Source: Candidatus Hodarchaeota archaeon
GTDB lineage: Archaea > Asgardarchaeota > Lokiarchaeia > Sigyniarchaeales > SOKP01
Assembly: GCA_048886685.1 (NCBI GenBank)
Contig: JBHLKM010000027.1
Coordinates: 1-34,523 of the forward strand
Length of the DNA: 34,523 nucleotides
Direction: 5' to 3'
Part shown: piece by piece, positions 88-28,671 of the stretch
Layout: each line of letters starts with the position of its first letter
Numbering within the stretch: position 1 is the stretch's first letter
The notes under the pieces: generated by a model
Databases searched by the model: none
Told to the model about the DNA's origin: nothing
The model's input: only the letters and a program-made list of their open reading frames with translations
Program-made: the position numbers and the translations under genes

Positions 88-534
88 TTGAAAGAGCTTT
101 ATGAGATAGGCTTTGTCTTTCGTGGATTTGTACTTGTTAATCATATATTCAAAAATCTTCCAGCGCAAAAAGAACATGGAGTTAATAAAGACCTAAGAGG
201 CGCATTTATATCCGCTATAAACGCTTTTACTGAAACTGCATTCCAAAAGAGTTCTTTAGAGTATCTAGAATCGGGAAATATCTTGTTTATTTTTAAAATT
301 GCAGAAGTTCAATCTGAGGATAATAATGTAAAAGAACCATTAATATTATATGGGTTAGTAGATAAATCAAAAAAGAAATCTGATAAGCTTGTTACTAAGT
401 TTTTTGGGAAAGTAAACCCGATTTTGCAGTTGTTTGTTCAAAACTTTAATGGAGCTAACTTCTCAGAATTAAATCAATTTGAACAGTTTGAAAAAAGTAT
501 GTTAGACTTTTTAATTAAAAAGCCACAGGATTAG
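88..534 (+). CDS. Longin-like (profilin-like fold) domain protein
   Basis: 148 aa. N-terminal beta hairpin (LYEIGFVFRGFVLVNHIF), then helix DLRGAFISAINAFTETAF resembling the longin alpha1 pattern (L..gflsA...F), strands (SLEYLESGNILFIFKI, LILYGLVD) and C-terminal helices. TTG start. Confidence 0.6.
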   Translation: MKELYEIGFVFRGFVLVNHIFKNLPAQKEHGVNKDLRGAFISAINAFTETAFQKSSLEYLESGNILFIFKIAEVQSEDNNVKEPLILYGLVDKSKKKSDKLVTKFFGKVNPILQLFVQNFNGANFSELNQFEQFEKSMLDFLIKKPQD

Positions 535-2187
535 TTAATCAGCAAGGCTCCAACCTTTTGGTGTTGCTCGAGAATATTTTATTTTACCTTGTTCCTTTAA
601 TAAATTGATTTTCTTTTCAATTTGATTAGTATCAAATCCCTTCTCTTTTATTGAGTTCACGAATTCTGCTTTTGTAGCCACAATTTCTTTTTGTCTAAGG
701 TATTCAATTATTAAATCACTCAATGAATCTCCTGCACTTACTTTTTCTTCGGGGATCTTTTCTTTCTTAGCACTAGAGAGAACAGTAGTTAATTTTTCTT
801 TATCTGTTCTAATAGGTTCTTCAATAACCATATGTTTTACAGCAACTTTGGGTTCTTCAATAGGCTCTATTTTTTCAACTTTTTCTTCTCTTTCTTCTTC
901 CGACAAACTCCATACAGGGTACATAACTTTTTCATATACTACAGATTTTTGTGTTTTAAGTACTGTCAATTCTTCCAATATTTCATCTTCAGTATATCCT
1001 AAATTTTTTAATTCAGAAGATAAATCTTTTAAATGCCCTTTTTTTAGTAAGATCTCGAAAATATGTTCTCTTATGTTTGTAGGAACCTCTTGGGCTTTCG
1101 CTATTTCCTTTATAATTTTATCTTTTTTAGGAGATTCTATCATTTCGATTTTAATTTGCTGAGGGATATCGAGAGGATCTTTATCCCCCCATTCAAAATC
1201 ACTTATGATTCTAATTGTACGATCATATCCTCCAAAAACTATGTTTTTCTTATGTTCTGGATCTAATCGATAACATATATCTTTAATTGAGGTTGACACT
1301 TTAGTTTTCCATTTCAATTCAAAATTAGGAGAACCGATAGAAGGATTATGGAATACTTTTAAGGATCCATCTGCACACCCCGCTACTATTTCATTCGCAT
1401 TATCACCATCAATATCTTCTATTAACAGTGATAAAGGACGACCTTCATCAATTTGGATTTCTTTAATTGATTCTCCATTAGCATTAAGGATTTTAATCGT
1501 AGAGTCATCAGTACTTAATAAAATTTCATTTAATCCATCATTAGTAGCATCCCCAACTTTAATGTCATTAACTTGAGTATTGAAGTCCTTTTGCCAAACG
1601 ATATCGGGAAGATCATCTTTAAATCTAATTAACTGGGTAATTCCGTTTTTTGTACCTACTAATAATCCATAAAATGGCATCTTTTCATCTGGTAATTTTA
1701 AAATCCCCAGTGTGCAAGCAGTCACCCAAGAATCGTAATATAAAATAAATTTCGGTTCTTTAGCTTTAATACTATCAAAAATCTTTAGAGTTTTGTCTTC
1801 ACTACCAAATATTAGTTCTATATTCCCATTTCGAGTAAAATCCCCAGCGATACAGCAATTTATTCTTTTTGGAGATCTATATTTCATTATGCCAACTAAT
1901 TTTTTCTTTTCTGGACTTAATTTCAATACCATGAAATTTCCATCACCAGCACCTACTAATACTTCATCACAACCATCTCCATCGAGATCAATTGGATAAC
2001 TACACCGACACCACCCATCAAAAACTCTATCATCAATGATATTCATACTTTCATCCATTAAATAGAGAGTTTTATCGTGTCCACCAAAAACTAAGAAACT
2101 ATTATCATGACATTTTAAAACGGAACATGTTAAAACCGCATCCGGACATTCAAACATATGAATAAGTTGATAACGCTTTCTAATCAT
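535..2187 (-). CDS. Beta-propeller protein (FG-GAP/VCBS-like, BBS2-like blades) with two C-terminal winged-helix-like domains
   Basis: Repeats DLDGDGCDEVLVGAGDG, GDFTRNGNIELIFGSEDKTLKIF, GDATNDGLNEILLSTDDSTIKIL, EDIDGDNANEIVAGCADGSLKVF, plus VFGGHDKT/VFGGYDRT, in aa ~1-330. Two ~60-aa helical units ending YPVWSL and TPKGWSL. No signal peptide. Confidence 0.7.
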   Translation of the reverse strand: MIRKRYQLIHMFECPDAVLTCSVLKCHDNSFLVFGGHDKTLYLMDESMNIIDDRVFDGWCRCSYPIDLDGDGCDEVLVGAGDGNFMVLKLSPEKKKLVGIMKYRSPKRINCCIAGDFTRNGNIELIFGSEDKTLKIFDSIKAKEPKFILYYDSWVTACTLGILKLPDEKMPFYGLLVGTKNGITQLIRFKDDLPDIVWQKDFNTQVNDIKVGDATNDGLNEILLSTDDSTIKILNANGESIKEIQIDEGRPLSLLIEDIDGDNANEIVAGCADGSLKVFHNPSIGSPNFELKWKTKVSTSIKDICYRLDPEHKKNIVFGGYDRTIRIISDFEWGDKDPLDIPQQIKIEMIESPKKDKIIKEIAKAQEVPTNIREHIFEILLKKGHLKDLSSELKNLGYTEDEILEELTVLKTQKSVVYEKVMYPVWSLSEEEREEKVEKIEPIEEPKVAVKHMVIEEPIRTDKEKLTTVLSSAKKEKIPEEKVSAGDSLSDLIIEYLRQKEIVATKAEFVNSIKEKGFDTNQIEKKINLLKEQGKIKYSRATPKGWSLAD

Positions 2188-2335
2188 GATCTTATAAGAT
2201 TCTTTTAGATTATAGAAATTCTTATAATATCTAAATTATATTTTTCTGTTTATTCACTTAATGATTACTTCTCGAAATATTAAATTATTATGGTAATATA
2301 GAAATAAAAAAAAATAAAAAAGAAGATTTATTATT

Positions 2336-4492
2336 TTATAATGCTAATTGAGCATCAGATGGGCTGTATTCGCCTGTACCAGTAATCTCATATGAGATTT
2401 CTAGGCTATCTCCAATTTCCAATTCGTCAATCTCCCATTTCAAAGTATCTTGGCCTACCTCATCTGTTATTTCTGGTTTCATTGAATAAGTTCCATATTC
2501 AAATGAATCGGGAACTTTATCAAGTAAAACAAGATTGTATAACTTAGATTCACCTATATTTTCAAGAGTTAAGATAATTCTATAATTACCAAGATCACCA
2601 ATTGGGACAACTTCTTTGCTTGTACGGAATTTCCTTCTTATATGAAGCGCTTCAATAACAGGAACTTCAGGTCTAAATTCTAATTCTTGACTTACAGGAA
2701 AGGTGTTTGCGTGATAGATGATTTCTGATTCAAATGTGGAATCTCGAGCAGGTTTTATACAGTGAATTGGATATTGAAATTCTAAAGTTGAATCTGGTTT
2801 AAACATACCTGTACTAGTATCTTTAAGATTTGCCAATGCAATAGTAAACACATCTGTTTCAAAGCTTACCGCATCAGCAGAAAGTTCCACCTCATCTCCA
2901 TCCCATATTAGCGTAATTTCATTTGCTTTAGGGGGTTGATATTCATCAGAGAAAGTTTGTTGAATGACGGTAATTTCATTTAATGGAGCAGAACCATTAT
3001 TTGCCATTTTAAGAGTAGCTACGACGTCTTGAGTCTTATAAGTTGGTGTTTCTACCTTATCATAAGCCATATCTCCGGTTATACTAGCTATTTCTAAAAT
3101 AACATCTGAGATTGTCATTACAACGTTCACATGATATTGATAGTCAGGAACAACTCTAAATTCAAGCTTCTTTCTAAATGTAGGATAATCTTCACTTTCA
3201 TATTGCCACTTAACTGAATGCCATTGAGCTCCTGCAGGTAACATTGGTACATCATTAGGATCAATATCAACAAATTTTGTACTCTCATCGTCAGGAGAAT
3301 ATACATCAGCATTGAAAAGTTGAATAACAAATTCAGAAGAATTATCAAAGATTAGTTTATTATCCCATATATTTGGTTCTTCATCTCTCTCAAGTGTATC
3401 GATATAAAATTTGTTACGAGTGTATGCGTCAAATTTATCGATAGCTAGACCCTCAGCAAATGAAGCCGCAGCTTTATAAGAAACATCGATCTCCCCAGTT
3501 TTTCTTCTAGCGATGTCATTTACCATAATGTTACATGTAAATTTAAGTAAAACAGTATACTCTGGTCTTAATCTATCAATTTTCCAAATAATTTTATCCC
3601 CTTCGATTTCCGCGCGTCCTTCCGTTGTATCTCGCACTACAGGGTTTGTGAATTCATCTGGTATTGTTTTGATAACTTCAATATCAGATACGGGTTTATC
3701 AAACATATTCCTTAACGCTATTGCGAATGTTATAGTGTTTTCTCTGTCTATAGAAATTCCAAATGTCTCTAGACTGGTTTCAGCAACCACAGTTCCACCG
3801 TCTTCCCATGTTTCTCCTTCTTCATCCTCTTCCTCATCATCCTCTTCCTCATCATCCTCTTCTGCGGTTGGTGGTATTGTTGCAGCAACTTTCTTACTAG
3901 GTTTACTTGATTTATCTTTAAGTTTTAATAGTTCTCTTTCAATATCATTGATATTTAAGACATCATCTGCTTCAGTAAGAGTACTGATAAATTCTTTAAC
4001 TAAAAAGAGATTTTGTACCTCCTTTTTCAGTTCGAACTCCTTTGTTTCAACGTTATCTGGATACTCGGTCCCTAATTCTCTTATTGATATAGTTTTCGAT
4101 TTCAAGTTCGTACTACCAATATTATCTAAGGCAACATCTATGTCCCAAAGGCGATCCGTTTTACTTGGATTTTCTATACTAATCTTTCCACCAAAACTAA
4201 AAGATTCAACATTAGCATCATGATCTTGTTTTACTTCGACATCCTCAATGATCTTTACTAATGCTAATAAACCTTCTCGATTTCCATTCTTCAATAAAAT
4301 ACTGCCTTCGAGTTCTCCCGTATCCTCATCATATGTCTCAATTATCGGTGTAGCAGAATCTCTATCGACCAGTTTTACTTTTCCCTCATCCATATCTGTT
4401 CTTTTCAATGCGTCTGCTACCAATTCTTCCCTTGCTTCAGCTTCATCCCATCCCATACCTGTTGTTTTCTTTTTCTTATCTTTTTTTCCCAT
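2336..4492 (-). CDS. Acidic multi-beta-sandwich protein (mu-homology-like region plus DUF11/Ig-like domains), no signal peptide
   Basis: 718 aa, very D/E rich. Repeated Ig-type motifs (ITFAIALRN..VSDIEVIKTIP..IIWKI; ATLKMANNGSAPLNEITV; ILTLENIGESKLYNLVLLDKVPDSF..LKWEIDEL..LEISYEI). Basic N-terminus with no hydrophobic leader or TM segment. Confidence 0.55.
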   Translation of the reverse strand: MGKKDKKKKTTGMGWDEAEAREELVADALKRTDMDEGKVKLVDRDSATPIIETYDEDTGELEGSILLKNGNREGLLALVKIIEDVEVKQDHDANVESFSFGGKISIENPSKTDRLWDIDVALDNIGSTNLKSKTISIRELGTEYPDNVETKEFELKKEVQNLFLVKEFISTLTEADDVLNINDIERELLKLKDKSSKPSKKVAATIPPTAEEDDEEEDDEEEDEEGETWEDGGTVVAETSLETFGISIDRENTITFAIALRNMFDKPVSDIEVIKTIPDEFTNPVVRDTTEGRAEIEGDKIIWKIDRLRPEYTVLLKFTCNIMVNDIARRKTGEIDVSYKAAASFAEGLAIDKFDAYTRNKFYIDTLERDEEPNIWDNKLIFDNSSEFVIQLFNADVYSPDDESTKFVDIDPNDVPMLPAGAQWHSVKWQYESEDYPTFRKKLEFRVVPDYQYHVNVVMTISDVILEIASITGDMAYDKVETPTYKTQDVVATLKMANNGSAPLNEITVIQQTFSDEYQPPKANEITLIWDGDEVELSADAVSFETDVFTIALANLKDTSTGMFKPDSTLEFQYPIHCIKPARDSTFESEIIYHANTFPVSQELEFRPEVPVIEALHIRRKFRTSKEVVPIGDLGNYRIILTLENIGESKLYNLVLLDKVPDSFEYGTYSMKPEITDEVGQDTLKWEIDELEIGDSLEISYEITGTGEYSPSDAQLAL
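3822..3862. repeat. 15-bp tandem repeat (TCATCCTCTTCCTCA x2.7) encoding the acidic EEDDE tract of the 718-aa protein
   Basis: Exact copies at 3822-3836 and 3837-3851, partial copy at 3852-3862. Confidence 0.9.
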
Positions 4493-4769: not shown

Positions 4770-6209
4770 TTATTGTTTGTTAAATTCTAGTAAAACAATG
4801 AGTAAATCGTTTACATTACATCCAGTTGGACCAGTTATTATTTCAGTTTTGACTGATTTAAAAAAACTATTTGAATCATTATTTTCAAGATATTTCCTCG
4901 TATCAATTTTACTTTCAAATATCTGATTTCTCACATAATTATCTACAAGTGCTCCCATTGCTTCACTATTTCCTTCGATGCCATCAAGATTGGTACCCAT
5001 AATTAAAAACTCATAAGGGATTTCTTTTCCTTTTATAAAGTCCAAGAAACTTAATAGCATTTCTTGATTCCTCCCTCCAATACCATTACCTTTAATTGTT
5101 ACAGTCAGTTCACCTGTTCCGATAAGAGCACATCTAATAGAGCTATTTTTTTTAGAAATTTCCTCAAATTTTTGAGAAATTAAAGGATGCAAAGACTTAC
5201 CAAATTCTTCTGCTTCACCAACTATTTTGTCAGAAAAGTAAGACGTTTTAAATCCTTGTATCTCGAAGAAGGAGATAAGTTCATCTACGGCATTCTTAAC
5301 ACTACCAATTATATAATTATAAACATTGTTGAAACACCTATCATTGATTTTGGGTGTTTCCATAATCGTACCTAGCAATCCCTTTTCTAAATGGTTTAAA
5401 ACTGCTTTTGGAATTTCTTTATGAATGTAATATTTCTTTAAGACTTCTATGGCATCATTAAAAGTACTAGAATCTGGTACAGTAGGTCCAGATGCAATCG
5501 ATTCTAATTTATCTCCTACAACATCCGAAATAATTATAGAAATTAATGTTGCTCCACTTTCATTATATAATTTTTTAGCAAGATTACCACCTTTAAAATC
5601 TGATAGATGTTTTCGAATAATATTAATTTCATGTATAGAAGCACCTGAAGCTAAAAGTTGGGCATTAACCTTTTGTAAATCTTCTAAACTTATCCCTCTT
5701 TTCGGTAAAGGTAATAATGCTGATCCCCCTCCAGAGATTAAACAAAAAATCAAATCATTATTTTGTGAGTTCTCTATTATTCGCATCATCTTTTTTGTCC
5801 CATTTACTCCATTTTTATCTGGAATGGGATGTGAAGCAAAGTTAATTTTGATTCTATTTCCCTTCAACTGTTCAGTTTTCAATGAACCTTTAGGTACGTT
5901 TATAATTCCCTCATAATCTACATTTTTTAACTTAGATAATACTCTTTCCAATGACATTGCCATTTCGTAAGTTGCTTTCCCACCACCAATAATGTGCACT
6001 TTATTATACTCATCAAGGATATATTCATCACCCTGAATATTTAATATATTATTTTGAACTTTAATCGAATTTTTTATTAAATTTTTAGGTTTAACTGTGC
6101 TAATTGCCCTTTGAAGTGCTTCTATTGCAATTTTTCTTAAATAAGATTGATGTTCGTTCAAATCTTTAATAAAAAGTTCATTAGTATTTTTTATATCCAA
6201 GTGGAGCAC
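4770..6209 (-). CDS. Glycerate 2-kinase (MOFRL/GckA/TtuD family)
   Basis: Motifs IGGGKA, ASHPIPD, LISGGGSALL, KHLSDFKGG, SDVVGD..IASGPTVPD, GGRNQE and C-terminal TGPTGCNVND. Confidence 0.93.
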   Translation of the reverse strand: MLHLDIKNTNELFIKDLNEHQSYLRKIAIEALQRAISTVKPKNLIKNSIKVQNNILNIQGDEYILDEYNKVHIIGGGKATYEMAMSLERVLSKLKNVDYEGIINVPKGSLKTEQLKGNRIKINFASHPIPDKNGVNGTKKMMRIIENSQNNDLIFCLISGGGSALLPLPKRGISLEDLQKVNAQLLASGASIHEINIIRKHLSDFKGGNLAKKLYNESGATLISIIISDVVGDKLESIASGPTVPDSSTFNDAIEVLKKYYIHKEIPKAVLNHLEKGLLGTIMETPKINDRCFNNVYNYIIGSVKNAVDELISFFEIQGFKTSYFSDKIVGEAEEFGKSLHPLISQKFEEISKKNSSIRCALIGTGELTVTIKGNGIGGRNQEMLLSFLDFIKGKEIPYEFLIMGTNLDGIEGNSEAMGALVDNYVRNQIFESKIDTRKYLENNDSNSFFKSVKTEIITGPTGCNVNDLLIVLLEFNKQ

Positions 6210-10293: not shown

Positions 10294-11454
10294 GTGATAC
10301 ACGAACTTTTTATTATGTTATCTAGTATTAGTGAAGACTGTCTTATTTTTTATGGTATCTCACCTGACTTTACAAAATCACGACAAATTTATAATGCTCT
10401 CTCTGATTTCATTAAGGAAAAACACACAATTGATCCTTATGGAAGATTTAATTTACTAATATTTCTCCAAGATACACCTAATTATTTAGATAATTTTACT
10501 TTTAACATAGATTTAATTCTAGATAATCTAAAAGCATTAAGTAAAAATATTGTAAAGGCTAATACTGCTGTAGGTATTTTAATTAGTATTCATTTAATTA
10601 TTCAAAATTTCAAGCATGTCTCGGAAAAGTTATTTAGATTATTGATTTTCTTAGATGAAGGATCTTATAAAATCCCTTCTAATCTTATTGACGTAATAAA
10701 GAATTTAATCAATAAGGCTAAAAATTTACCATTTTATATTGATATTGTAGGCGTAGAGATTAACAATAAGCAAGAAAGTGATTACTTAAAAAAAATTGCG
10801 AATTTAGGGAATGGAGAGTTTTATGAGGTTAATAATATTAAAGATCTGAGACCTTTATTAAATGAATTGTCAAAAAAAAAATTTATAGAAGAATCTTTAT
10901 TTTCAAGGTATAAATTGCAATTAGCTCAGAAAGAGACTCAACCTTTCTATATTAACTTAGCTGATGATCCAAAAGTTATACACGATCGTACAACTTGCTC
11001 AATATGCTTTCAAAAAGATTTAGAGGGTATTATGATGTGTCCTTCATGCAATACACTTGCACATAAAACTTGTTGGGCAGTGTGGGCTAAAAGTTCAGTT
11101 CCTCAAATACCTCATGTTTTTAGATGCCATAATTGCTTTAAATTATTGAAACTTGATAGTGATTTTGTTTTTGATGTACAAATAGGAAGAATACCTATAA
11201 TGAATGAATTTATTCAAGTTAAAAGAAAAAATAATTTAGATTATTTACGAGAATTAGAAACTAAAAATCAACCAAAACTCATACAAGCTGAAGATCCAAT
11301 GGTAACTGACATTAGAAATATAATCGAATCTAAAAAAGCCAATTCTGAAACTAAAGAAGATGGTACATTCATATCATTTGATATTTGCCCCGTCTGTAAT
11401 AACTTATTAATGGGAGATAAGAAAAGTTGTCCAATATGTGGCTTTAAACTATAA
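10294..11454 (+). CDS. Degenerate vWA domain + C4HC3 RING/PHD-like zinc finger + C-terminal zinc ribbon
   Basis: vWA-like strands and helices (RFNLLIF, RLLIFLDEG, IDIVGV, LKKIANLGNGEFYEV). CSIC-x10-CPSC-x4-HKTCW-x16-CHNC. C-terminal CPVC-x9-CPICG. Start could be GTG 10294 or ATG 10315. Confidence 0.7.
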   Translation: MIHELFIMLSSISEDCLIFYGISPDFTKSRQIYNALSDFIKEKHTIDPYGRFNLLIFLQDTPNYLDNFTFNIDLILDNLKALSKNIVKANTAVGILISIHLIIQNFKHVSEKLFRLLIFLDEGSYKIPSNLIDVIKNLINKAKNLPFYIDIVGVEINNKQESDYLKKIANLGNGEFYEVNNIKDLRPLLNELSKKKFIEESLFSRYKLQLAQKETQPFYINLADDPKVIHDRTTCSICFQKDLEGIMMCPSCNTLAHKTCWAVWAKSSVPQIPHVFRCHNCFKLLKLDSDFVFDVQIGRIPIMNEFIQVKRKNNLDYLRELETKNQPKLIQAEDPMVTDIRNIIESKKANSETKEDGTFISFDICPVCNNLLMGDKKSCPICGFKL

Positions 11455-24606: not shown

Positions 24607-26175
24607 TTAATACTTATCATCAATATTTGAAAGCATCGATTTCAGTTGATCAAATATATCAATGCGAAAGTCAGTTCCAATTCTGAAAAAGAATAATGAG
24701 ATTGCTTTTTCATCGAGTTGCTCATCAACATTTAATTCTTCAATAAATTGAGACCAACTACTGCTTGCTGATGCTCTAATTCCAATTAATACAACACCAT
24801 TATCTTTTATATTTCCAATAATTTTTATAATTATATCTTTCCATTTGAGATCTACATGCTCCTTCTCTCTGGCATCAAAAATACAAAAAACACCATCAGA
24901 ACTTGAAACATCATCAATAGCGGTATAAAGGTGTTGCTTTATTATCAATCCATTCGAATATTGGAAAACTTGTTCGTCATCATAATCTCTTAAAGATGAA
25001 CTTTCTCCTAATTTTTTTATTTTAGTAAGAGCTTGTAAACCAGGACTCCACATCATGCTTTCTGTAATAAATGAAATCGTCAAAACAATTTTTTTCTTTA
25101 AGATTGATACAATCTTATCGTATAATATGTCACTCCGTCTATTATCCTCAATTTCTTTACTTTTCATTACATAATGATAAGAGATCAAATTAAAAGCATC
25201 CTCAATATTTTCTCCAGTCAATGCACTCGTTTCAATATAAGAAAGCTTTATTTTTTCCCTCTCAGATAATTCATTTGCCCGTTTTACACCCTCTTGATAA
25301 AATATTTGACGACCTACTTTTAAATCAGACTTATTTCCTACCAAAACAATTGGAATTTCCTCGTCTGTAGTAAAGTCTTTTAATTCTTGATACCAATTTT
25401 TAATATTGTCGAATGATTCGCGGTTTGTTAAATCAAAAACTATAAAAGCTGCTTGAGCTCCTGAATAATAAACCTTTCGAAAACGACGGAAATACTTTTG
25501 AGCACCTAGGTCGTACAGAGTTACACCAATTTCATTACCAAAAAACTCAAAAGTATGTGTTAAGACATTAAGACCTATCGTTGCGCGATAATCCTCTGAA
25601 AACTTGTTCTCGACAAATCTCCGAATAATAGAGGTTTTCCCGACTTCATGATTGCCCAGAATCACAAACTTAAAACGATATTCTCCTCGTGTTGCTAGTT
25701 CCATTTGATATAGTTGATTTTTTAACCTTAATACATTCTCTGCTTCATACTCAAAATTAGGAACAGAAATTTGAATTAAATCACCTTCATCAGCAGTTAA
25801 AATTTGAGCTGTTTTTTCGGCAAGGAATAAACCATATGGTGACAATTTCTCAATAGATGCCATATTATCAAGTACTAAACTTAATATTCGTTCCTCATCA
25901 ACAGAGATAAATAAGAGGCGGTGTTCCTCGGTATCAAAACTCGCATTTCCAAATTTCTTAAACGCAAATTCATTACGCATACGTTGTAATACAGGATTTA
26001 TAATTATGCTTAAAACAGATACTAATTCAATATCTATATCTTTCCTTTTTTCACCAGCAATAATTAAACCTTCACTATCGGAAACAATTAGTGCTTCTAC
26101 TTCCTCATTTATCTCTAAAAATTTGTTGAATAAATCGGTAAATAACTTATTTTTGCGTAATACCAAGGATACCAT
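24607..26175 (-). CDS. Roadblock/LAMTOR-like domain + Rab-like small GTPase + degenerate G-domain-like C-terminus (paralogue 1)
   Basis: VEALIVSDSEGLIIAG (roadblock), G1 GNHEVGKT, G2 YRATIG, G3 YDLGAQ, YYSGA, G4 GNKSD, G5 ETSAL. Confidence 0.88.
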   Translation of the reverse strand: MVSLVLRKNKLFTDLFNKFLEINEEVEALIVSDSEGLIIAGEKRKDIDIELVSVLSIIINPVLQRMRNEFAFKKFGNASFDTEEHRLLFISVDEERILSLVLDNMASIEKLSPYGLFLAEKTAQILTADEGDLIQISVPNFEYEAENVLRLKNQLYQMELATRGEYRFKFVILGNHEVGKTSIIRRFVENKFSEDYRATIGLNVLTHTFEFFGNEIGVTLYDLGAQKYFRRFRKVYYSGAQAAFIVFDLTNRESFDNIKNWYQELKDFTTDEEIPIVLVGNKSDLKVGRQIFYQEGVKRANELSEREKIKLSYIETSALTGENIEDAFNLISYHYVMKSKEIEDNRRSDILYDKIVSILKKKIVLTISFITESMMWSPGLQALTKIKKLGESSSLRDYDDEQVFQYSNGLIIKQHLYTAIDDVSSSDGVFCIFDAREKEHVDLKWKDIIIKIIGNIKDNGVVLIGIRASASSSWSQFIEELNVDEQLDEKAISLFFFRIGTDFRIDIFDQLKSMLSNIDDKY

Positions 26176-26309: not shown

Positions 26310-27896
26310 TTAGATATATTTGATGGTATTCAGCATTACTTTGAGTTGATCAAAAATTTCTAGTCTATATTCAACCCCTATTTTGAAAAATAATAAAGAA
26401 ACCATTTTTTGATCCAATAATTCGTTAACATTGAATTCTTCCATTATTCGTGACCAGTCGTTTTTTTCAGTGACCCGTATCCCAATTAAGACTACTTTAT
26501 TCTCCTCTATATCATTTATGATATTGATTACAACGTCTCTCCATTCTGGATCGATATGATCCTCATAACGAGCATCAAATATACAAAAAACTCCATCAGA
26601 ATTAGATACATCAAAATTTTTATAGAGATAATTCCTCAATATCACCCCATTAGAGAATTTATATACTTTTTCATCATACTCATCCTTAATCTTCTCAAGT
26701 ATATACTCGCTATTAATATCTGAAAGTATTTGCAAGCCTGGACTCCAGAATTCGTTTTCTGATATTACAGTTAATATGAACAAGTTTTCTAAATTCACTC
26801 CTTGTTTTTTTCTTTTCTCTAATATCAAGTTGAGCTCATTTAATAAATCTTGTTTCACAATTTTCTCTTCTTCTTGCTTACTTTGAGAAATATAATGATA
26901 TGCGATTAGTGTAAATGCATCCTCTACGTTTTCTCCTGTTAAAGCGCTTGTTTCGATGTATGAAGCCTTAATATTAACATTTTTTGAAAGGGTGCTTACT
27001 AAATCCACTCCATTTTGATAAGAAATTGCTCTTTGTTCCCTTAAATCAATCTTATTTCCGATTATTATTAATGGGATTTGTCTTTGGTCAATAAATTTTT
27101 CTAATTCGTCATACCATTTCATGACATTATCAAATGATTCCTTTTTTGTTAGATCAAACACAATAAATGCAGCTTGAGCTCCCAAATAATAAGTTTGACG
27201 AAATCTTGCGAAAAATGATTGAGCCCCTATATCCCACAGGCTGTAAGCAACTTTGTTGCCATAAAATTCTATATTGTGGCTTAATATATTTAATCCTATC
27301 GTAGCACGATAATCATGGGAGAACCTATTCTCTACAAACCTTCTTACTAAAGAAGTCTTACCTACTTCATGATCTCCTATGATAACGAACTTAAATCGAT
27401 AAGTACCCCCTTGGTCAAGTCTCAATTGATAAATTTGATTTTTTACTCTTTCTTCAGTTGCAGAAGCATCGGTTTCATATTCAAAATGAGGAATCGTCAT
27501 TTGAATATTATCACCTTCCTCTGCATTGAGTATTTGGACTGCTTTTTCTGCAAGCAAATATGCATAAGGGGAAGCTTTATCAACTGATGCCATATTATTA
27601 AGGACAATGCTTAATGTTCTCCTTTCATCGAGGGAAATGAATAAAAGTCTGTAAAACTCTGTATCAAAACTCGCAGTCCCAAATTCTCTAAACGCAAATT
27701 CATCACGAATTCTTTCCAAGATAGGATTGATGATAGAAGTTAAAACGGATACTATTTCCATATCTATTTCTTTTCTTTTTTCACCTGCTATTACTAAGCC
27801 TTGTTGATCACTTACAATAACAGCCTCAACATCTTTATTAATTTCTAAGAAAAGATTAAATATTTTTACAAAAAGCTCATTTCTATTTATTGACAA
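26310..27896 (-). CDS. Roadblock/LAMTOR-like domain + Rab-like small GTPase + degenerate G-domain-like C-terminus (paralogue 2)
   Basis: VEAVIVSDQQGLVIAG, G1 GDHEVGKT, YRATIG, WDIGAQ, YYLGA, GNKID, ETSAL. Alignable end-to-end with 24607-26175. Confidence 0.88.
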   Translation of the reverse strand: MSINRNELFVKIFNLFLEINKDVEAVIVSDQQGLVIAGEKRKEIDMEIVSVLTSIINPILERIRDEFAFREFGTASFDTEFYRLLFISLDERRTLSIVLNNMASVDKASPYAYLLAEKAVQILNAEEGDNIQMTIPHFEYETDASATEERVKNQIYQLRLDQGGTYRFKFVIIGDHEVGKTSLVRRFVENRFSHDYRATIGLNILSHNIEFYGNKVAYSLWDIGAQSFFARFRQTYYLGAQAAFIVFDLTKKESFDNVMKWYDELEKFIDQRQIPLIIIGNKIDLREQRAISYQNGVDLVSTLSKNVNIKASYIETSALTGENVEDAFTLIAYHYISQSKQEEEKIVKQDLLNELNLILEKRKKQGVNLENLFILTVISENEFWSPGLQILSDINSEYILEKIKDEYDEKVYKFSNGVILRNYLYKNFDVSNSDGVFCIFDARYEDHIDPEWRDVVINIINDIEENKVVLIGIRVTEKNDWSRIMEEFNVNELLDQKMVSLLFFKIGVEYRLEIFDQLKVMLNTIKYI

Positions 27897-28092: not shown

Positions 28093-28671
28093 ATGCCTTC
28101 TTGTATAGTTTGCCATTTACAGATAGACGAGAGCAAAGATTCGTTTTATAAGTGTGAAAATGGACACCCAATTCATGATAAGTGTCTAGCAGATTGGTTA
28201 ATGCATTCACAAAACTGTCCATTATGCAGTGATCCTTATTCTCCAAGTGTGATATCTAAATTTAAGGTTTTTATGGAAGAAAAAGAAAAGGAAAAGCAAG
28301 AAGCCTTAGAAGAGGAATTAAAAAAAGAAACTCTAAAGAAAATGGAAAAAGTAACAAATAATATTATTTTCCTCAAATTTATTGACTCTGTTGAGTCACT
28401 TATTGAAGATAAAAACTATAATGTTGCTATCGACTTACTTATTGAATCCTATAATGAAACCTTGTTTGATGATCAAAATTTAAAAGTGTTATTCTTGCTT
28501 GGAAAAGTAAACTACCTAAGAGGGAGGTATGATTTAGCAATTAATTTCTTATTTAAATTAGTTAAATTAAAATTTGATTATCCTGATGGCTTTCTATTTC
28601 TTGGGAAATCATATGAGGCATTGGGGATGAAAGATAAGGCAGAATGGGCTTATCAAAGAATTAAACAATAA
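28093..28671 (+). CDS. RING-H2 finger + coiled coil + TPR protein (putative E3 ligase)
   Basis: CIVC-x13-CENGHPIHDKCLADWL-x5-CPLC, E/K-rich helix, TPR-like units LFLLGKVNYLRGRYDLAI and FLFLGKSYEALGMKDKAEWAY. Confidence 0.82.
   Translation: MPSCIVCHLQIDESKDSFYKCENGHPIHDKCLADWLMHSQNCPLCSDPYSPSVISKFKVFMEEKEKEKQEALEEELKKETLKKMEKVTNNIIFLKFIDSVESLIEDKNYNVAIDLLIESYNETLFDDQNLKVLFLLGKVNYLRGRYDLAINFLFKLVKLKFDYPDGFLFLGKSYEALGMKDKAEWAYQRIKQ

Follow-up and report, generated by a model that had tools for sequence, protein, structure and literature searches.

A mu-homology-domain protein and a beta-propeller protein probably form a two-protein cytoplasmic scaffold in an order of Lokiarchaeia

Three adjacent genes at the start of contig JBHLKM010000027.1 (C27; assembly GCA_048886685.1) from Candidatus Hodarchaeota archaeon (Lokiarchaeia, Sigyniarchaeales) were analyzed. 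The contig, 34,523 nucleotides in length and here called the window, belongs to a genome of 4.4 Mb. Two of the genes, both on the minus strand, encode a protein combining a mu-homology domain (MHD) with immunoglobulin-like (Ig) domains (MHD-Ig protein, 2336-4492) and a protein combining a beta-propeller with two winged-helix-like domains (propeller protein, 535-2187); the third, on the plus strand, encodes a stand-alone longin (88-534). We propose, with a probability of about 0.62, that the MHD-Ig and propeller proteins constitute a cytoplasmic two-protein scaffold specific to this Lokiarchaeia order, and that the longin is a mere neighbour by conserved gene order. Modelling makes it likely that the two proteins are a physical pair, and, given the pair, a role as membrane adaptor, argued from analogy, is an evenly balanced proposition. 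The module would probably reduce to a heterodimer.

The sequence-only reading of this DNA had placed the three open reading frames (ORFs) at these positions, and its description of the locus was confirmed. The stop codons of the longin and propeller genes abut with zero gap (TAG at 532-534 and TAA at 535-537), and the co-oriented MHD-Ig and propeller genes are separated by a spacer of 148 nt (2188-2335). None of the three proteins carries a signal peptide or transmembrane segment, as judged by hydropathy and inspection rather than SignalP (top 19-residue Kyte-Doolittle means of 1.06, 1.16 and 1.49). The longin, beta-propeller and mu-homology/beta-sandwich folds that the sequence-only reading named were all borne out by models and profiles. 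Two winged-helix-like domains in the propeller protein, three extra Ig domains in the MHD-Ig protein and an oligo-T tract had gone unmentioned.

The joint presence of the pair was determined in 60 genomes of the source family. Both genes were present in 44 genomes and both were missing in 12, and only one was found in 4, two of which are 71-74% complete while two have the propeller gene at a contig edge. The pair-less genomes occupy three places in the longin tree, which has a weak backbone and carries no clade test; at least two and probably three events are indicated. The two genes lie within 3 kb of each other in 36 of the 44 family genomes, and in three genomes (G022, G029 and G036) the pair has moved together away from the longin. 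An order-level search overturned the idea that the propeller is confined to one family: a propeller of 25-30% identity was found in all 14 genomes of sister family f2 and in the single genome of f28. The MHD gene stands beside the propeller gene in 11 of 14 fetched sister loci, convergent and 0-4 genes apart, and the other three loci end at contig edges. The flanks in the sister families are transcription factor B (TFB), gelsolin or LysE genes in place of glycerate kinase, and the orientation of the pair is inverted. Two cultured species carry the pair, Lokiarchaeum ossiferum (NEF87_004104/004105, consecutive tags) and Promethearchaeum MK-D1 (DSAG12_01670); no ORF occurs between TFB, propeller, MHD and LysE in L. 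ossiferum.

A complex of MHD-Ig residues 62-718 and propeller residues 1-338 was modelled with a score of 0.77, the best control reaching 0.00; this mark was reached by 58 of 80 solved pairs and by 2 of 110 mismatched pairs, counts that apply only roughly, as our own alignments were used. The runs shared at least 94% of contacts, and partner pLDDT was at least 88. The score supports binding, of which it is not a measurement. In the model the acidic beta-hairpin of the last Ig domain (residues 674-682, EITDEVGxD; 2447-2473, minus strand, as are all features of the two proteins given below) is the core of the predicted interface and, with its neighbours in Ig domain E (residues 619-718; 2339-2638), contacts one face of the propeller (residues 1-335; 1183-2187) at H37, W59, G81, R250, A272, S300 and Y321. 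The MHD lies outside the confident contacts and stays free. Conservation of at least 90% was found for 9 of 18 interface residues of the propeller against 82 of 310 elsewhere, and W59, G81, R250 and Y321 are kept across both families (4/18 interface residues, compared to 21/328 positions overall). Hairpin residues D677, E678 and D682 were invariant in all 34 propeller-linked orthologues of the source family and variable in 41 other Asgard members. Conserved linkage together with a confident interface, which the sequence-only reading had named as support for a three-gene module, was thus obtained for the MHD-propeller pair and not for the longin, which persists without the pair and was not detected in the sister loci.

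The MHD-Ig protein is an acidic protein (pI 4.4) of 718 residues, comprising a polybasic N-terminus (4466-4492) that may be a membrane-binding patch, a small N-domain, an MHD with an inserted Ig domain and two further Ig domains. Among linked orthologues, 31 of 32 have at least four K/R within eight residues close to the N-terminus, as opposed to 9 of 41 others. The MHD (residues 72-463; 3104-4279) is interrupted by an acidic loop (about residues 204-236) and by Ig domain C (residues 358-448; 3149-3421), which, from model and alignment ranges, is inserted ahead of the last MHD strand. Single-sequence searches of Pfam, NCBIfam and PDB gave no match for the MHD of this copy, and alignments and modelling were needed. 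The model (pLDDT 91) has the two-subdomain fold of the PF00928 class, and MHDs formed the top rows of a wide structural search. Alignment to AP-2 mu2 gave a VIA Z of 16.7, with 225 of 245 residues aligned at a root-mean-square deviation (rmsd) of 3.5 Å; mu4 (15.2), mu3 (14.9), delta-COP (14.3), SGIP1 (12.7), mu1 and Syp1 also matched, and the family profile found AP-3 mu (E 0.0013). Only VIA realignments were used here, since long Ig arrays, at rmsd near 40 Å, dominated the Foldseek ranking of the whole 718-residue model. Secreted or S-layer proteins as best structural hits would have spoken against a cytoplasmic adaptor module; instead, MHDs spanning both subdomains rank above any pilin.

The YxxPhi pocket of mu2, which we take to be formed by D176, W421 and R423, is not kept, the corresponding registers holding K80, P449 and Y451 (ungapped register of the structural-alignment ends). 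Lysine occupies position 80 in 30 of 34 linked orthologues, and positions 449 and 451 show no W or R consensus. No longin precedes the MHD: the model gives residues 1-72 a single helix and four short strands, a stretch that is too short for a longin and differs from one in the order of its elements. Likewise, no longin Pfam match was found on 18 MHD homologues with extensions, and no longin-MHD or propeller-MHD fusion among the homologues scanned; a search for longer fused forms (1489-4250 residues) returned only bacterial DUF11 repeat proteins, which is weak evidence.

Ig domain D (residues 468-618; 2639-3091) is CnaA/pilin-like, with VIA Z of 13-14 to pilin CnaA domains of Sgo0707, BcpA, SpaD and RrgB, and domain E is DUF11/CLIPPER-like, with a TIGR01451 match at residues 627-671. 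MHD subdomain B (domain B), D and E are mutually homologous (HHalign 94.8 and 97.9% for B to the two C-terminal domains; 96-98% for E to B and D), and the homology of subdomain B to the protein's own CLIPPER-like repeats suggests a route by which the MHD fold may have been assembled. The Lys-Asp-Asn triad of isopeptide-forming domains is degenerate in domain D (M475, Q511, N596) and not kept in domain E (K626, D658, Q715 in the source clade), the registers being deduced from spacing and alignment starts, not atomic distances. At these registers of domain D, K-D/E-N was found in 20 of 41 other Asgard members and in none of the 34 propeller-linked orthologues, where K and D are lost; the sister-family linked copies have also lost the triad. 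An intramolecular isopeptide bond is possible in cytoplasmic relatives that keep K-D/E-N and lack signal peptides (e.g. loci L071-L073 and L091-L097). In MHD subdomain B a near-invariant Glu/Lys pair (E167/K275; within 3000-4492) stands where domain E has Lys/Asp, a charge swap.

The propeller protein has 550 residues and consists of an FG-GAP/ITFG2/BBS7-type propeller, a linker, winged-helix-like domain 1 (residues 366-430; 898-1092), an acidic linker and winged-helix-like domain 2 (residues 486-549; 541-732). The propeller matched Pfam BBS7 (PF23743, 1.3e-16, 61 bits, cut-off 27) and BBS2_Mid (PF14783, 4e-11, 43 bits) and, in PDB profile searches, ITFG2 (1.2e-13), BBS7 (2e-4) and BBS2 (8e-4); a bacterial lambda-carrageenase-type propeller family matched as well (2e-11). 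An N-terminal propeller of BBS/ITFG2 type, a trait of BBSome core subunits, is therefore present in this protein. The GAE-platform-helical tail of BBS proteins is absent, the C-terminal 215 residues consisting of the two winged-helix-like domains and linkers. These domains are mutually homologous (HHalign 98.3%). Domain 1 has weak matches to Z-alpha-type winged helices, and domain 2, in which a basic wing motif is conserved, has weak matches to MCM5_C (best, 3e-4), TFE, RPA32-C, Z-alpha and LrpA. A hidden Markov model (HMM) also found domain 2 in sister family f2, where 11 of 13 propeller orthologues carry it, and on a split f28 copy. Propellers of genus g3 (920-1020 residues; L031:1098-4157, L032:664-3693 and L033:13367-16132) have gained an N-terminal extension of about 480 residues; this was considered as an MHD and rejected, being helical/coiled and without a Pfam match.

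The longin gene encodes 148 residues. Single-sequence searches of Pfam, NCBIfam and PDB gave no match, and the fold was recognized from alignments and modelling. The AlphaFold model (pLDDT 85) has the order beta-beta-alpha-beta-beta-beta-alpha-alpha, with the five-stranded sheet between one and two helices that defines the longin superfamily. VIA Z was 12.2 to TRAPP Trs23, 12.1 to CPLANE, 11.6 to a Lokiarchaeal longin and 11.3-11.5 to VAMP7 and Mon1-Ccz1, compared to 10-10.5 to AP sigma/N-mu and delta-COP, and PF01217 was not matched. On the model, the protein is a longin, yet no closer to AP sigma/N-mu than to longins of the guanine nucleotide exchange factor (GEF) type. The source genome holds about 5-8 paralogues, and the family was found almost only inside the source archaeal family. 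It shares the fold of the Asgard stand-alone, TRAPP, Mon1-Ccz1 and CPLANE longins (Z 11-12), differing from them as a family-restricted paralogue group without a Pfam match. In G005:C25, G048:C29 and G051:C31 the longin gene is tandemly duplicated beside the propeller gene.

Several results weigh against the two-protein scaffold or limit what can be read from it. An oligo-T tract (T6, then T9; 2306-2321, minus strand), likely an archaeal terminator by its sequence, begins 15 nt past the MHD-Ig stop codon, and a T run of 7-15 nt lies within 60 nt of this stop in all 26 related loci; therefore the MHD-Ig and propeller genes probably form separate transcripts despite their co-orientation. A scan for sigma-70-type promoters and terminators, a type ill-suited to archaea, found nothing above chance. 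In G005, G048 and G054 the MHD gene has left and the propeller has stayed by the longin. Most Asgard lineages keep the MHD protein without this propeller, indicating that the core job of the MHD family is independent of it. Unlinked second copies within the same clade also keep most of the hairpin motif, and the sister family keeps only D682 of it, so that conservation of the motif reflects one clade and one event; as it fails to separate linked from unlinked paralogues within the clade, it was dropped as independent evidence of co-evolution. The modelled interface may also echo a likeness to BBSome/KICSTOR propeller contacts. Finally, no gene for a GTPase, an endosomal-sorting (ESCRT) component, a solenoid or a membrane protein is conserved next to the pair, and for this reason what points to a membrane role is the analogy of folds together with the basic N-terminus. 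At other places, the genome encodes HEAT proteins that pass Adaptin_N, and the same search also matches in Methanosarcina.

The sequence-only reading had suggested separated building blocks of an adaptor/BBSome-like complex, in which longin, propeller and MHD protein would be three subunits and the longin a stand-in for sigma/zeta or N-mu. The fold calls stand, and all three folds occur in eukaryotic adaptors; the longin is not supported as part of the module, and the YxxPhi pocket and the BBS tail are lacking. Of 43 family genomes, 32 keep all three genes together; propeller and longin adjoin in 41 of 45, and the longin stayed with the propeller in the three genomes that the MHD gene left. 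However, in 24 of 30 loci the MHD gene has glycerate kinase (DUF4147/MOFRL; 4770-6209, minus strand), an unrelated neighbour serving as synteny control, within 1.5 kb, and since this gene is equally linked, the synteny of the trio is at background level. A longin orthologue was retained in 10 of the 12 pair-less genomes, there directly adjoining glycerate kinase, and neither a longin nor glycerate kinase was detected in the 14 sister-family loci, although the longin HMM is family-specific and could miss a divergent one. The restricted spread of the longin family, its Z to AP sigma/N-mu some 2 units below GEF-type longins, the departure of the pair in three genomes and the want of a linked solenoid further argue against a three-subunit complex, which we regard as quite unlikely. 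The caution that linkage may be accidental is probably right for the longin, which would be a bystander; it stays by glycerate kinase when the pair is missing or moved. A very improbable extension of the same caution to the pair itself would have its genes linked by inheritance and its interface a false pass. Background synteny in the family is strong, termination is separate, and some blindly picked neighbours also pass complex scoring; on the other hand, the linkage outlasts inversion and full replacement of flanks between families, the pair is jointly absent in several lineages and the controls score zero.

Two other explanations accept the pair and assign it a different task. The MHD-Ig protein could be a structural, pilin-like subunit of a rod or lattice, cytoplasmic or exported non-classically, whose C-terminal end is capped or anchored by the propeller, the adaptor likeness reflecting ancestry and not function. 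Its five tandem or nested Ig sandwiches, the likeness of domain D to CnaA pilin domains, the isopeptide-type residues in about half of the other Asgard members, the absence of a cargo pocket and a weak profile match to the archaeal bundling protein AbpX (E 0.08) are consistent with this, and surface fibres have DUF11/CLIPPER domains in their stalks (PMC12617251). Against it, no adhesin/pilin-type signal peptide or surface anchor was found, the N-terminus being basic, then acidic; the triad is gone in all 34 clade members and in the sister linked copies, the best structural matches are MHDs over both subdomains, and the relatives with HEAT and SAP fusions suggest a cytoplasmic location. We hold this explanation to be unlikely. 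The least probable of those considered is that the winged helices bind nucleic acid and that the pair is a regulatory or nucleoid-tethering module and not a trafficking adaptor. The TFE, Z-alpha, LrpA and MCM-type matches, the basic wing of domain 2 and the TFB gene upstream in the sister family would fit; nevertheless all of the matches are weak (E 3e-4 or worse) and include the protein-binding winged helices RPA32-C and MCM-C, TFB is not a neighbour in the source family, and in archaeal ESCRT loci winged helices commonly serve as modules for binding proteins (PMC11188069).

In the two-protein scaffold that we favour, the acidic hairpin of the last Ig domain is predicted to plug into one propeller face, with MHD, polybasic N-terminus and winged helices remaining free. 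The basic N-terminus may bring the complex to the inner membrane face, and the tethered winged helices could recruit a further partner. The MHDs of muniscins and delta-COP bind peptide motifs other than YxxPhi, and the archaeal MHD may do likewise. Such a complex would act like a monomeric-type adaptor that couples downstream machinery to cargo or to a site on the membrane, and not like an AP-type heterotetramer or a coat. Its cytoplasmic place is supported by the absence of a signal or transmembrane segment and by the HEAT and SAP fusions in relatives.

The MHD-Ig family was found in 123 of 150 Asgard genomes, representing 23 of 27 families, and its orthologues in L. ossiferum and MK-D1 pass the PF00928 cut-off. 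The source genome has two more MHD-Ig paralogues (C17:34690-36801 and C5:133702-135726), which belong to other clades and lack the hairpin motif. In distant members P0248, P0268, P0226, P0196 and P0246 N-terminal HEAT-like repeats are fused to the MHD-Ig array (Pfam HEAT_2 in P0248 only), and others carry SAP domains or long coiled extensions. The propeller and longin families were not matched around the MHD-Ig gene in 39 other Asgard loci. In four other Asgard families a co-oriented metallo-beta-lactamase-fold gene comes before the MHD-Ig gene, and in three others a GHL10-like gene comes after it (loci L071-L073, L078, L079, L081, L082 and L109).

Compared to known systems, the MHD of this protein shares the order and geometry of both sandwich subdomains with AP-1 to AP-4 mu, delta-COP and the muniscins SGIP1 and Syp1; it differs from these in having no N-terminal longin or F-BAR domain, in its inserted and two appended Ig domains, in the loss of the YxxPhi pocket and in an identity of 9-15%. 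Lacking a longin-MHD fusion, a YxxPhi pocket, a BBS tail and a linked solenoid, the pair is not a member of the adaptor protein (AP)/COPI/TSET complexes or the BBSome, and by analogy the MHD protein may work like a monomeric MHD adaptor. The propellers of ITFG2 (KICSTOR) and BBS1/2/7/9 (BBSome) are the best PDB and Pfam matches of the archaeal propeller, which differs from BBS proteins in its two winged helices; as the lambda-carrageenase family matches at about 1e-11 too, a specific kinship is putative. A preprint notes an Asgard-eukaryote BBS7/ITFG2 structural cluster (bioRxiv 10.64898/2026.10.28.762692). Domains B, D and E match DUF11, and D superposes on pilin CnaA (PMC12617251); unlike CLIPPER and pilin proteins, the MHD-Ig protein has neither signal peptide nor anchor, its triad is degenerate in the clade, and one repeat is MHD subdomain B. 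Halo_adaptin ESCRT loci join propeller, Ig-like adaptin domains and winged-helix proteins (Makarova et al., PMC11188069), whereas the source locus has no Vps4 or ESCRT-III gene and its Ig array holds a true MHD.

The MHD family is already catalogued as a homologue of the AP mu C-terminal domain, and its domains are known Asgard eukaryotic signature proteins. Table S3 of Eme et al. 2023 (PMC10307638) lists a member of the family, from Lokiarchaeales Bin_204, among Asgard 'Adap_comp_sub' candidates. The N-terminal half printed there shares long motifs with the MHD-Ig protein, as compared by eye only, and the Bin_204 protein is evidently an orthologue. An asCOG label for the family also exists in the supplement to PMC9834061. 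As far as their searchable text goes, these sources label the family at the level of Pfam, regard its distribution as sparse and mention no five-domain architecture, near pan-Asgard spread or propeller partner; the family proved to be nearly pan-Asgard, not sparse. A literature search whose scope left out most subscription titles found no paper on the accessions, on Asgard and BBSome or on Asgard and mu homology. Relative to the searchable literature, the order-wide linkage in cultured strains, the conservation of single residues across families and the homology of subdomain B of the MHD to prokaryotic CLIPPER domains are new.

The origin of eukaryotic vesicle adaptors is an open question, and published Asgard adaptor domains are scattered, unfused and without partner information. 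A structurally complete MHD now has a specific candidate partner, a residue-level predicted interface and orthologous pairs in two cultured strains, and the presence of the pair in L. ossiferum and MK-D1 makes binding, location and abundance testable now. Removal of the longin from the proposed module guards against over-reading shared gene order. More tentatively, the MHD-propeller complex might serve Lokiarchaea, including two cultured species, as an adaptor close to the membrane, and a pan-Asgard five-Ig protein made up of prokaryotic CLIPPER-type repeats might be the source, through its first two sandwiches, of the eukaryotic AP/COPI MHD. If true, archaea would have their first defined complex made of adaptor-type parts, and the origin of the mu-homology domain would become traceable.

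Some features of other loci and of the rest of the window were also recorded. Immediately upstream of the propeller gene, most sister loci (L160-L162, L166, L168-L170 and L172; L162:7090-8058 in L. ossiferum, and MK-D1) have a gelsolin-repeat gene, usually with TFB; this arrangement reflects either gene order at background level or a connection with the actin cytoskeleton. In L043 (G037:C5:10722-12039) two short copies of the last domain of the MHD protein, with 72-75% identity to residues 640-718, lie between the MHD and propeller genes. Within the window, 20 kb away from the MHD-propeller locus, two tandem genes (24607-26175 and 26310-27896, minus strand) encode 520-residue proteins, each with a Ras/Rab-like GTPase domain in the middle that is flanked by long extensions on its N- and C-terminal sides; they adjoin a RING/TPR protein gene (28093-28671). 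A 386-residue protein encoded at 10294-11454 on the plus strand has weak matches to Prok-RING/zinc-ribbon and Tfb4 (vWA-like) domains.

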